NCBI GenBank assembly: GCA_964645315.1 | Contig: CAZYBH010000001.1 | Coordinates: forward strand, 32,405 to 96,404 | Direction of reading: 5' to 3' | Source of the DNA: an uncultured Candidatus Saccharibacteria bacterium | GTDB lineage: Bacteria; Patescibacteriota; Minisyncoccia; Phycocordibacterales; PALSA-1337 | DNA: 64,000 bases | Shown: positions 30,901-33,863 of the stretch, piece after piece | Layout: each line of letters starts with the position of its first letter | Numbering within the stretch: position 1 is the first letter of the stretch | Position numbers and translations under genes: made by a program | The notes under the pieces: model-generated | What the model was told of the DNA's origin: nothing | The model's input: the letters and a program-made list of their open reading frames with translations, nothing else | The model's database searches: none

Positions 30901-31618
30901 TGTCGTCGCTACCGTAAATGGTGTCGTCACTGGCATGAAAGATTTGGGTAAAGAAAAAGTTATATTTGTTATCCCAGAAATCGAAGATAAGGGTAAGTCA
31001 AAGGCTTCAGAGATCGAATACACATTCCCATATCGTCGTACTGTTATGGTCAAGGTTGGTGATAAGGTCAAGAAAGGTCAATTGTTGACAGACGGTTCTG
31101 CCGATATCGATGAGGTCTTCGAATATGGAGGTGAAGAACAAGCAAAGGATTATGTCATCTCAGAAGTCAATAAAATTTACGAATTACAAGGTGAGACTGT
31201 GGCTCGCAAGCACATCGAGCTTATAGTCAAGCAGATGTTCAGTCGCAGGAAGGTCGTAGAAGCTGGAAATACAAATCTTACCGAAGGTATGATCGTCGAT
31301 GAGACTCAACTTCTAGAAGAGAATGCTGAAGCAAAGGCAAACGGTGGAAGTCCAGCAAAAGTAGAAAAGATTGTGATGGGTATTACCGAAACATCACTTT
31401 CGAGGAAGAGCTTCCTATCCGCTGCTTCATTCCAACACACGACTCGTGTTCTTATCTCAAACTCAGTCCGTGGTGCAAGCGATGATCTAACTGGTCTAAT
31501 GGAAAATGTCATCATCGGTCGCTTGGTCCCAGCTGGTACAGGTTACAAAGGATCTCCAAAGAAAGATATGGTAGATGCTTTGAAAGGAGATGAGGTGGTA
31601 GGTGAGGAGGAGGTGTAA
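27938..31618 (+). CDS. rpoC: DNA-directed RNA polymerase beta' subunit
   Basis: Zn-finger [34 protein letters not shown] catalytic motif, trigger loop and so on. 1226 aa. Confidence 0.95.
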   Translation: [1226 protein letters not shown]

Positions 31619-31716
31619 TAAAAAGTTCAAAATTATAAATGCAAAATGCAAAGTTGAATCGCATTGCGATAAAACTTTGCATTTTGTGTTTTGAACTTCT
31701 CACCTATGTCAGTTAT
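31591..31716. repeat. ~125-bp direct-repeat module, copy 1 (contains last 8 codons of rpoC plus a bidirectional-terminator-like hairpin caaaatgcaaagtt..aactttgcattttg)
   Basis: ~90% identical to 33740-33863. First 44 bp (tgaggtggtaggtgaggaggaggtgtaataaaaagttcaaaatta) identical. Confidence 0.85.
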
Positions 31717-31731
31717 CTTCAATTATTTTGT

Positions 31732-33708
31732 TTATTTTAGAATATTTACAATTCCTCTGTCTGCATCAACCTCTATCTCATCTCCATCTTTTAATACCTG
31801 AGTGGCAAATTTGGTACCTATTATGCAAGGTTTTTGCATTTCTCGAGCAATAATTGCAGCGTGACAAGTAATACCACCCTCATCAGTAACAAAGGCGAGG
31901 GCTTTCTTCATTGCTGGTACCATATCTGGAGTCGTCATGGGTGAGACAATAATTTCTCCATCGAGCATCTGTTCGACTTGATCTTTCCTTTTAACAATTC
32001 TGACAATTCCTTTAACTTTTCCTTTAAAGGCACTTTGTCCATTCAGTAAGTTATCGCCGTGATCTATTTTTTCAATCTCAAATTCGAATTCTGGAAATTT
32101 ATTAACTAAATTTTCGAATGATATTGTGCCAACAAAAATATCAGGAACTAGTGCAAAGCCGCTGTCTCGTTTCTCGAGTTGGTCTTTATCGATCTTGCCA
32201 CCCAGTTCTTCACGAGTGATATATACAACCAAATAACCTAGATCAGGATAAATATTATTGAGCGCCTTCCAGATGGCAGTATTACATTCAGCAAAGAGAA
32301 CATCCTTTTCTCTAAATTTCTTTGCTTTTTCTTTATACTCTTCTGGTACTTTTTCGTTCATTAGTGCTGCATATAAGATCACAAAATCAGATACTTCGTC
32401 ATAAACGAAATCGATAAAAGTCTGAAGGTCTGAAATTGTTGTGATCTCTCTTTTCCACCATTCCTCAATTTCTGCAAGCCTCTTGTAGTAGTTATCGTAA
32501 ATTTCATCGAAGAATTTTTTATCGGATTTAAACTTTTCCAAAATTTGATCAAGAAGCCAATGGTTTGCTTTTGTGTTCTCCCACACCTCCTCGACACCAT
32601 CCTTCATATAATAGAGATATGGTGGATTATACGGATAATCCTTAAGTCCAAGCTTCTTAATTAAACCTTCTTTGTTTGCTGCAAACCATGCTTGTTGCAT
32701 GATGATCGAGAAATTACGTGTATACGCTTTGATAAAGGTCTGTTTTTGTTGAATGAAAGTTTTATTTGAAAGTGTCGTTATGGGTCTACTTTGTACAATG
32801 TAAAATTTTCCATTTTGATTAGCCCACTCGATATCACAAGGAAAACCGTAGTGATTTTCGATTTTCATTATTATTTCTGAAAGTTCGAGAATTTGTGCTT
32901 CGTTTAGGACTTGTGATGAGGCTTTGGATTCAGGTACCTTTTTCCACTCATTGCCACCTGTATGAGATCGATGTAAAGCACGGTCTTGAGTTGAAACATT
33001 TATATCAATAATTCTACGAGGATCTTTTTCAACAACGTAACTATCAGGGGTGATTTGACCTGATACGATCGCCTCGCCGAGACCAAAACCAGCCTCGATG
33101 ATTAGTTGATTATAATCTTCAGTTACTGGGTGTACAGAGAAAGCAATTCCAGATACTTCTGATTCAACCATTTTTTGTACCACGACTGCTACAGATATCT
33201 TGGTAGTGTGAAGTCCCTTTTCAAATCGATAAAAGATGGCACGAGGAGTAAATAAGGATGCCCAGCAGTGTTTGATCTTATCAAGTAGATCCACTTCGGT
33301 GGTATTCAAGTAAGATTCAAGCTGTCCAGCCCAAGCATGTTCTTTACCATCCTCGGCTGTGGCAGATGATCGGACTGCAACAAATTCCGAATCGAGTTCT
33401 TTAAAGAATCTACTGATCTCAATGGCAATATCCTTTGGCATTTCCTTCGAAAGAATTAGATCTTTAATCTGTTCTGATGCAGACTCAACTGTATGAATTT
33501 CTTGGTGGTTAACTTTATCAAGAATTGCATCAATTTCTTGAATGAGATCAGTCTCTTGGATAAAACGTTCAAATGAGTTGGACAAAATCACAAAACCAGG
33601 AGGAACAGGAATTCCTGCTCGTGTCATTTCACCAAGTGAAGCACCCTTACCACCTGCAATAGTGGCATCATTTTTAGATAGATTTTTGAAGGCTCTGATA
33701 AGCTCCAT
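31732..33708 (-). CDS. PEP-utilising enzyme family protein (PPDK-N ATP-grasp + C-terminal phosphohistidine swivel domain); pyruvate,water dikinase-like / rifampin-phosphotransferase-like architecture
   Basis: N-terminal ATIAGGKGASLGEMTRAGIPVPPGFV (PPDK_N nucleotide-binding). C-terminal GGITCHAAIIAREMQKPCIIGT (PEP-utilizers mobile His domain). The ORF-track N-terminus (to 33822) is encoded by the repeat and is probably not translated, so the start is set at MELIRAF. Confidence 0.75.
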   Translation of the reverse strand: MELIRAFKNLSKNDATIAGGKGASLGEMTRAGIPVPPGFVILSNSFERFIQETDLIQEIDAILDKVNHQEIHTVESASEQIKDLILSKEMPKDIAIEISRFFKELDSEFVAVRSSATAEDGKEHAWAGQLESYLNTTEVDLLDKIKHCWASLFTPRAIFYRFEKGLHTTKISVAVVVQKMVESEVSGIAFSVHPVTEDYNQLIIEAGFGLGEAIVSGQITPDSYVVEKDPRRIIDINVSTQDRALHRSHTGGNEWKKVPESKASSQVLNEAQILELSEIIMKIENHYGFPCDIEWANQNGKFYIVQSRPITTLSNKTFIQQKQTFIKAYTRNFSIIMQQAWFAANKEGLIKKLGLKDYPYNPPYLYYMKDGVEEVWENTKANHWLLDQILEKFKSDKKFFDEIYDNYYKRLAEIEEWWKREITTISDLQTFIDFVYDEVSDFVILYAALMNEKVPEEYKEKAKKFREKDVLFAECNTAIWKALNNIYPDLGYLVVYITREELGGKIDKDQLEKRDSGFALVPDIFVGTISFENLVNKFPEFEFEIEKIDHGDNLLNGQSAFKGKVKGIVRIVKRKDQVEQMLDGEIIVSPMTTPDMVPAMKKALAFVTDEGGITCHAAIIAREMQKPCIIGTKFATQVLKDGDEIEVDADRGIVNILK

Positions 33709-33739
33709 ATTGTATATACTAGCATACCCGAGCTCCTTT

Positions 33740-33863
33740 TGAGGTGGTAGGTGAGGAGGAGGTGTAATAAAAAGTTCAAAATTAAAAATGCAAAATGCAA
33801 AGTGAATCGCACTGCTATTCACTTTGCATTTTGCGTTTTGAACTTTTCACTTATGTCAGTTAT
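33740..33863. repeat. ~125-bp direct-repeat module, copy 2 (includes duplicated rpoC 3'-end fragment gaggtggtaggtgaggaggaggtgtaa)
   Basis: See 31591-31716. Lies immediately upstream of the PEP-utilising gene start. Confidence 0.85.

Follow-up and report, generated by a model that had tools for sequence, protein, structure and literature searches.

An intact dikinase gene flanked by direct repeats of the rpoC 3′ end in an uncultured Candidatus Saccharibacteria bacterium and its probable gain through recombination

The repeat-flanked gene downstream of rpoC

The 3′ end of rpoC, the gene for the β′ subunit of RNA polymerase, occurs twice in a 64,000-nucleotide (nt) stretch of DNA from an uncultured Candidatus Saccharibacteria bacterium (contig CAZYBH010000001.1 of assembly GCA_964645315.1), and between the two occurrences lies a single gene for a predicted ATP-dependent dikinase, the subject of this report. 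The whole stretch is called the window here, and its coordinates are used throughout. The rpoC gene (27938-31618, plus strand) carries the Pfam RNA_pol_Rpb1 domains 1-5 and, up to position 31611, is 93-96% identical in nt sequence to two related loci, L002 and L098. Inspection of the region 31400-34100 for repeat structure revealed two direct repeats (R), copy A at 31591-31725 and copy B at 33740-33872, recovered by repeat search and by global alignment with each other, in which 123 of 135 columns (91%) are identical. Copy A is also supported by alignment with alleles that lack the gene (empty alleles), and copy B is also present in an independent assembly, L107. The copies are 98% identical over their first 64 nt (one difference) and about 85% identical beyond, where two 1-nt indels occur, and the longest exact run common to both is 45 nt. 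In each copy, the 28-nt rpoC 3′ end is followed by a long hairpin rich in AT, and a tail of 21 nt closes the repeat. Both open with TGAGGTGGTAGGTGAGGAGGAGGTGTAA, which in copy A is the genuine end of rpoC (the last 28 nt of the gene, stop codon included, are the first 28 nt of the repeat), and in copy B the duplicate of this end is non-coding. The private DNA between the copies amounts to 2014 nt, divided into 6 nt, one minus-strand open reading frame (ORF), and 31 nt. An earlier reading made from the sequence only had recognized these direct repeats, which are real, but its coordinates end each copy about 10 nt too early on the right; its statement that each copy carries the final codons of rpoC and a hairpin agrees with the sequence and with folding (z-scores of -7 to -8).

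The hairpin of copy A (31612-31704) is AT-rich, with stems made of TGCAAAR heptads, and folding of both strands gave free energies of -37.6 and -36.1 kcal/mol (z -7.1 and -7.9). The hairpin of copy B (33761-33851), folded together with the small terminator that follows it (33761-33905), reaches -51.5 kcal/mol (z -8.3), and none of 200 shuffled controls folded as well as the repeat hairpins. This small terminator (AAAACAAGGTGGCCTTCGACCATTTTGTTTT, 33871-33903, plus strand), found by a terminator scan, is the ancestral one of rpoC and is shared with L002, L003, L098, and the empty alleles. In relatives it stands 30-36 nt past the rpoC stop codon and in the window directly after copy B, having been displaced to its present position by the insertion. 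Since TTTTGTTT follows both copies, the repeat might be taken to continue into the small terminator, but this sequence was judged too short and T-rich to count.

The dikinase gene occupies 31732-33708 on the minus strand and encodes 658 amino acids (aa), as judged from Pfam and from alignment to homologues and to phosphoenolpyruvate (PEP) synthase. The longest ORF is larger (31732-33822, 696 aa) and has its GTG start within copy B; however, alignments with the homologues and with PEP synthase begin only at the ATG at 33708, and therefore the additional 38 N-terminal residues are spurious. The same had been concluded in the sequence-only reading, which had also dismissed an antisense ORF at 31512-31703; this ORF exists but has no Pfam match. 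The GC content of the gene (0.375) and the GC content of its third codon positions (0.30) lie inside the range of the neighbouring genes, so there is no compositional signal of foreign origin. Upstream of the gene, the 31 nt of private DNA (33709-33739, minus strand, delimited from the sequence) contain TGcTAGTAT about 10 nt before the ATG, which could be an extended -10 element. Downstream, TTTTTATT directly follows hairpin A on the minus strand, with a U-tract that was read from the sequence, and on the plus strand this hairpin has no U-tract; it is thus possible that hairpin A acts as an intrinsic terminator for the dikinase gene.

Filled and empty alleles in a recombining population

Species-representative genomes were scanned with the RpoC C-terminus, which yielded 80 Patescibacteria loci, and tblastn was run with the window proteins. 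The gene order rpoC, dnaG, rpoD, uvrD-like is kept across related rpoC loci, and in none of the 80 does a dikinase gene follow rpoC; in all, about 85 related rpoC loci lack the gene at this place. The locus L002 is 95.9% identical in nt sequence over 10.1 kb up to window position 31611, and continues with a 36-nt spacer, the terminator AAAACAAGGTGGCCTTCGGGCCATTTTGTTT, and dnaG; L098 and L099, reached via a 90%-identity RpoC cluster, are 93.5% identical and arranged as L002. In L003, rpoC is followed by the spacer, the common small terminator, an antitoxin gene (93% identical in aa sequence), and mazF. These last two genes are also the native neighbours of the insertion site in the window (antitoxin, 33936-34187; MazF/PemK toxin with the Pfam PemK_toxin domain, 34138-34509; both on the plus strand), where a promoter scan placed a promoter-like site at 33900-33927 beside them, and the pair recurs in L003, L005, and the empty alleles. 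The expectation that rpoC in related genomes would be followed by the antitoxin or dnaG without the dikinase gene was thus borne out in L002, L003, and L098.

Decisive alleles came from contigs that code exactly for the window antitoxin (L102-L107). In four of them (L102, L104, L105, and L106; rpoC about 95% identical in nt sequence), rpoC is followed by a single R with its hairpin, the small terminator, the antitoxin gene, and mazF. The assemblies and runs with these empty alleles are ERZ28655916, ERZ724528, ERZ724544, and SRR5676445. In contrast to the empty alleles, L107, which comes from another sample (assembly ERZ27282915) and another assembler, matches window 33560-34449 at 96.6% and reproduces the right-hand junction in the order gene 5′ end, 31 nt, copy B, terminator, antitoxin. 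The hairpin-bearing R is therefore native to the sub-lineage of the window, the gene is a lineage-specific insertion, and filled and empty alleles both exist in nature, which is the presence/absence polymorphism that the sequence-only reading had proposed to look for. The remaining contig, L103, begins within copy B, where its assembly breaks at the repeat, and matches 33755-37005 at 100% identity; it shows the window's own population in the public run SRR11567520.

It could be asked whether the structure is a chimera of metagenome assembly, since the source is a metagenome-assembled contig and L103 breaks inside copy B. However, the longest exact run of the copies is 45 nt and they differ at 12 positions, the rpoC codons in copy B cannot stem from another locus, and the right-hand junction recurs in L107 from a separate sample and assembler. 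The structure is therefore not an assembly artefact, and the chimera is scarcely credible.

The spot in which the gene lies is variable among relatives. The distance from rpoC to dnaG ranges from -24 to 6374 nt in the 80 loci, and the cargo found there includes MazF modules, Fic, RhuM, PAP2, and DUF2339 proteins, ABC and MFS transporters, a copper ATPase with DsbD, and pilin-like LamG proteins. In two loci the cargo lies between two copies of a 30-45-nt terminator hairpin (L007, 9527-9556 and 10595-10624, 97% identical; L022, 11348-11371 and 13039-13062, 92% identical), which hints that duplication of the rpoC-proximal terminator recurs; the layout is that of the window on a smaller scale. The DNA leading up to the insertion is also mosaic. 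When window 21447-31611 is compared with L002 and L098, blocks of 99.6-100% identity abut blocks of 85-94%; positions 23947-25947 are about 100% identical to L002 and 82-92% to L098, and positions 26431-26931 are 99.8% identical to L098 and about 93% to L002. This pattern indicates frequent homologous exchange among diverged strains of the species complex. The 9% divergence between copies A and B is inside the inter-strain range and exceeds the 2-3% rpoC divergence from relatives that lack the whole structure; on one reading, the two copies are alleles of different strains joined by recombination.

The product and its family

The protein divides into an ATP-grasp domain (residues 1-317; nt 32758-33708), a middle domain with no detectable relative beyond its own family (residues 318-549; nt 32062-32757), and a swivel domain with the phospho-histidine (residues 550-658; nt 31735-32061), all on the minus strand, as is the codon of the catalytic His616 (31861-31863). 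Pfam detects PPDK_N at residues 17-317 (E 7e-100) and PEP-utilizers at residues 583-652 (E 1e-26), in line with the ATP-grasp and C-terminal swivel-His architecture seen in the sequence-only reading; the PEP-utilizers_C TIM barrel (PF02896) has no Pfam match in the product, as that reading had likewise noted. All of 37 homologues retain the motifs GGKGASLGEM (K21), VAVRSSATAED (R113), and TDEGGITCHAAIIAR with His616 without change, and these motifs align to PEP synthase. The swivel motif GGITCHAAIIAR (H616) is unchanged in the same homologues, with His616 inside an invariant TDEGGITCH, and the protein fits the motif described for the superfamily, GGxT(S/C)HAA (PMC12167813). It thus possesses both the ATP-grasp nucleotide-binding residues and the swivel motif of the dikinase superfamily, to which PEP synthase, pyruvate phosphate dikinase (PPDK), rifampin phosphotransferase (RPH), HpeHI, and PigC belong. 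Four basic residues are invariant in the middle domain (K327, R331, R466, and R514), which may point to a site of phosphoryl transfer or to an anionic ligand. In the AlphaFold model of the whole protein (mean predicted local distance difference test, pLDDT, 86), Foldseek ranks the Listeria RPH (RPH-Lm) best (E 4.5e-37), followed by HpeI and PEP synthase.

The product is best read as an ATP-dependent, phospho-His-mediated dikinase of the PEP-synthase/PPDK/RPH mechanistic class, with an acceptor that is probably anionic. By homology, the ATP-grasp domain would pyrophosphorylate His616 of the swivel domain, after which the γ-phosphate would leave as Pi; the swivel domain would then move the remaining β-phosphate to an acceptor held by the 230-aa middle domain, so that the net reaction would be ATP + acceptor -> AMP + Pi + phosphorylated acceptor (PMC4844700; PMC12167813).

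The identity of the protein within this class was judged by NCBIfam scores against curated cut-offs, and all matches stay below the cut-off and cover terminal stretches only. The PpsA model NF005057 scores 460 bits (cut-off 598) and a further PpsA model 441 bits (cut-off 740). PigC scores 300 bits (cut-off 1300), and the RPH models NF041857 and NF000283, which match both end domains only, score 342.5 bits (cut-off 999) and 240.6 bits (cut-off 1700). An identity as PEP synthase was rejected because of the missing TIM barrel, the scores below the PpsA cut-offs, and the 230-aa domain between grasp and swivel. The ATP-grasp and swivel domains are 40-50% identical to those of PEP synthase and PPDK, the GGxTCHAAIIAR motif included, but the window protein has no PEP/pyruvate TIM barrel; in alignments with PEP synthase structures, residues 3-316 and 544-654 are covered and the middle domain is left unmatched.

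The position of the gene beside rpoBC had suggested in the sequence-only reading that it might be an RPH, inactivating the drug that targets RpoB and recruited to this place for that purpose. The domain order is indeed that of an RPH (N-terminal ATP-grasp, central acceptor domain, C-terminal swivel phospho-His, as in RPH-Lm, PDB 5HV1/5FBS), the presumed chemistry from ATP and acceptor to AMP, Pi, and phospho-acceptor would be the same (PMC4844700), and RPH-Lm is the top full-length Foldseek match. However, the rifampin-binding domain of RPH-Lm comprises about 450 residues in three subdomains (PMC4844700), and the middle domain of the window protein has about 230 aa, half of that, and is unrelated to it in sequence and fold. 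A 25-sequence profile of the middle domain found no RPH among PDB sequences at E <= 10, and Foldseek with the middle-domain model (pLDDT 94) gave nothing better than E 0.5 and no match to the rifampin-binding fold. The score for NF041857 is about one-third of its cut-off and that for NF000283 lower still relative to its own (241 versus 1700), the matches being limited to the terminal domains. Furthermore, the 729 proteins matched by the middle-domain profile are mostly of about 340 aa ([middle+swivel]) or multi-module forms, and not RPHs of about 865 aa, the homologues have no linkage to rpoBC, and the protein has none to rifamycins. Beyond its domain order, the protein is thus not recognizable as an RPH, an identity that the sequence comparisons and the structure model do not support, and recruitment as a resistance gene is very unlikely. 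Since the genes of the homologues have varied, unrelated surroundings and cargo of many kinds occurs between rpoC and dnaG in many relatives, the adjacency to rpoBC has no evident meaning and the placement looks incidental.

The middle-domain profile was run against 1.84 billion representative proteins, and stand-alone [middle+swivel] proteins are the commonest among its 729 matches. Other forms are fused, like that of the window (about 660 aa), or have two [middle+swivel] modules (about 1000-1150 aa; P0002, 76% identical to the window dikinase, is one), or up to four, and the longest multi-module proteins reach 2648 aa. In L001 (8492-15075), a full-length gene is followed by four [middle+swivel] genes. 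This arrangement suggests that one ATP-grasp domain may charge several phospho-carrier modules. As far as source names show, the family is a modular branch of the dikinase superfamily confined to Patescibacteria and DPANN archaea. A second swivel domain or a middle-domain paralogue was sought in the window and not found.

A similar logic is known from the two-component dikinases HpeHI, CreHI, and phenylphosphate synthase PpsAB, in which an ATP-grasp unit serves a separate unit of acceptor-binding domain and swivel His (PMC12167813). HpeI, the ATP-grasp subunit of the two-component phenol dikinase, is a top fold match for the N-terminal domain of the window protein, and the stand-alone [middle+swivel] proteins parallel its partner. 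The acceptor domain of HpeH is, however, homologous to the rifampin-binding domain of RPH (PMC12167813) and the middle domain considered here is not; moreover, all three parts are fused in the window protein, and no aromatic-catabolism genes are nearby. The family is an uncharacterised modular subfamily of small-molecule dikinases with a different acceptor domain.

A database protein, P0001, is 100% identical to the product, and a look-up of contigs encoding exactly this protein returned none. The best non-self homologue in a collection of 5.8 billion proteins, which includes the proteins of L002, L003, and L004, is 76% identical. In the hosts of the closest homologues, DnaG and UvrD are just 33-38% identical to those of the window, and the gene was therefore probably acquired from a more distant Patescibacteria lineage. 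It is also possible that its absence from the sampled relatives reflects loss. No full-length homologue was found on viral contigs or plasmids: the viral contigs held no relative at all and the plasmids only ppsA genes, covering at most 64% of the query. The neighbourhoods of the homologues vary. Genes of the histidine-phosphatase superfamily (His_Phos_1 or His_Phos_2) recur near homologues in L001, L092/L093, and L095, and a Mur ligase or D-Ala-D-Ala ligase (Ddl) gene lies immediately upstream in L001 and L096. These neighbours, recurrent though not universal, are possible functional hints only.

Gain and loss of the gene

The preferred reading, with a probability of roughly 0.6, is that an intact single gene, encoding an ATP-dependent dikinase, was added in one sub-lineage to the variable spot between rpoC and the toxin-antitoxin genes or dnaG, by homologous recombination through R. 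It is proposed that a circular or circularised DNA with the gene and one R would cross over with the resident R and yield R-gene-R (Campbell-type integration), and that a crossover in the opposite sense, between the two R copies, would excise the gene, after which a single R would remain. Homology-driven gain and loss through R is inferred to be the most likely mechanism, because one crossover of a circle bearing R and the gene with a resident R would produce exactly this geometry; the reverse crossover to a single R is consistent with the coexistence of filled and empty alleles. No transposase or integrase was found in the insert, where the dikinase is the single ORF with a Pfam match, or in the flanks, which are collinear with L004 and L098 from about 17.3 to 43.5 kb except at variable sites.

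Several points weigh against this account. The first R-gene-R needs a separate event, as the circle must already carry R. A simple crossover would not lead one to expect the gradient of identity along the copies (98%, then 85%). In the sampled empty alleles, the hairpin apex is flipped and the tail inverted compared with both window copies, and these alleles are therefore not direct excision products of the window allele. Neither a circular intermediate nor read-level evidence nor a left-junction contig from another sample was seen. A consensus scan detected no standard sigma-70 promoter upstream of the dikinase gene, and the chemistry ascribed to its product is taken by homology only.

As an alternative, the duplication may have come from a donor fragment. 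The donor would bring the gene together with R and an rpoC 3′ end of its own, and would be joined by homology within rpoC on one side and by an illegitimate join 28 nt before the recipient rpoC stop codon on the other, through homology-facilitated illegitimate recombination or double-strand-break repair, so that copy A would represent the allele of the donor and copy B that of the recipient. This would account for the start of the duplication within the coding end, the 9% divergence of the copies, the absent recombinase, and the arbitrary position of the right-hand boundary, and the population is highly mosaic. However, a donor with the gene beside R is required and none has been sampled, two-sided homology would far more frequently lead to an ordinary double crossover that leaves no duplication, and no microhomology is definable at the junction. 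Such a route is considered rather unlikely. A transposon or cassette inserted by a staggered cut, akin to the cassette insertion with target-site duplication suggested in the sequence-only reading, would explain direct repeats of the target placed exactly at both ends of the insert. Known target-site duplications made by transposases are 2-15 bp long, and 135 bp is far above this; in addition, the copies are just 91% identical, and neither a transposase nor terminal inverted repeats are present in the insert. A true target-site duplication is therefore highly improbable, and membership in a transposon or insertion sequence was rejected on the same grounds, namely the lack of a transposase, of terminal inverted repeats, and of a short exact duplication. 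The locus resembles the genomic islands that occupy gene 3′ ends (attL/attR), in which the target 3′ end is duplicated, the gene stays intact, the cargo is flanked by the repeats, and empty and filled alleles exist. The direct repeats of the window duplicate the 3′ end of the target gene, and empty sites are found in relatives, but no tyrosine or serine recombinase is present within the element; the cargo is one 2-kb gene, the repeats are 91% identical with no exact core, and the target is rpoC and not a tRNA or tmRNA gene. The insertion of an accessory gene at a hotspot is of a known kind, and it is the long, recombinase-free duplication of a housekeeping-gene end that is unusual.

Another possibility concerns the hairpin itself. 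A third hairpin of the same heptad type lies at 40760-40847, at the junction of the uvrD-like and dsbA-like genes, outside the insertion but of the same sequence family. In L098, a 93% identical relative, this site (20595-21053) is taken up by a different, GC-rich sequence of 458 nt that includes a 102-aa ORF, and it is thus a second place where a heptad hairpin coincides with a difference in gene content between close relatives. The window has three such hairpins, and the orthologous sites of L002 and L098 have none. Near-identical heptad hairpins are also present in eight metagenome contigs (L084-L091) of unrelated organisms with 48-61% GC, in which a shared adjacent gene was sought and only ordinary, unrelated genes were found, and in which no paired hairpins were found. 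The hairpin pattern gave no match in viral contigs. The hairpins could be a mobile element, a binding site for a protein, or a type of terminator. Rfam has no family for the hairpins at the gathering threshold, and at a permissive threshold over 31400-34000 it returned only sub-threshold matches to plant and animal miRNA precursors, which were dismissed because the hairpins are generic long hairpins. Among the alleles, the apex of copy A (31649-31681) is the reverse complement of the empty-allele apex (L102, about 3283-3315) at 32 of 33 positions and agrees in direct orientation at 27 of 33, a tail core of about 18 nt (ATGTCAGTTATATTCAAA) is inverted relative to the empty alleles, and the apex in L107 is more palindromic. 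The hairpin evolves by rearrangement, and the flip of the apex and the inversion of the tail make the divergence of the copies a poor clock. It was speculated that the TGCAAAR-heptad hairpin is recombinogenic by itself and needs no linked recombinase to take up and release single genes. The gene captured here would then be the fused form of a modular dikinase restricted to the candidate phyla radiation (CPR) and DPANN, in which one ATP-grasp domain would charge one or several modules of a new acceptor domain and swivel His. The presence in unrelated phyla, at least one other variable site in the window, and the apex flips between alleles were cited in its favour; the idea is regarded as unlikely.

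A related proposal makes the hairpin a recombination site of the integron attC or dif kind, served by a recombinase encoded elsewhere, with the gene as a captured cassette. The layout of hairpin, near-promoterless ORF, and hairpin, with private flanks of only 6 nt and 31 nt, is reminiscent of it, as are the same-type hairpins at the second variable site and in unrelated bacteria and the apex flips. Likewise, the single ORF with minimal flanks and the imperfect palindromic repeats of about 130 bp recall integron cassettes and Vibrio VCR arrays, and the length and the identity (about 90%) of the window repeat are reminiscent of Vibrio VCR/attC sites. However, on either side the duplication runs 21-28 nt past the hairpin, and it takes in native rpoC codons, so it is not the product of recombination inside the hairpin. 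No RYYYAAC/GTTRRRY core sites were found by inspection, and the hairpin ends TTTGAAC/GTTCAAA do not fit them. The syntenic flanks leave no room for an integrase, the window has neither IntI nor an array, and the eight unrelated contigs lack paired hairpins. A site-specific capture of this type is quite unlikely, and homologous recombination through R remains the preferred explanation.

The locus illustrates, with empty and filled alleles both known, how one metabolic gene can enter a conserved housekeeping region of an uncultivated bacterium with a small genome when no mobile-element machinery is involved. Frequent homologous recombination appears sufficient for such a gain, which bears on the question of how Patescibacteria, poor in classic mobile elements, vary their gene content. 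The locus gives no evidence of rifamycin resistance beside the RNA polymerase genes. Elsewhere in the window, a tRNA gene (20008-20092, minus strand) is the sole Rfam match at gathering level, and a perfect inverted repeat at 8109-8182 has 28-nt GC-rich arms (GCGTCATTCCCGCGAAGGCGGGAATCCA) around an 18-nt loop in an otherwise AT-rich sequence.

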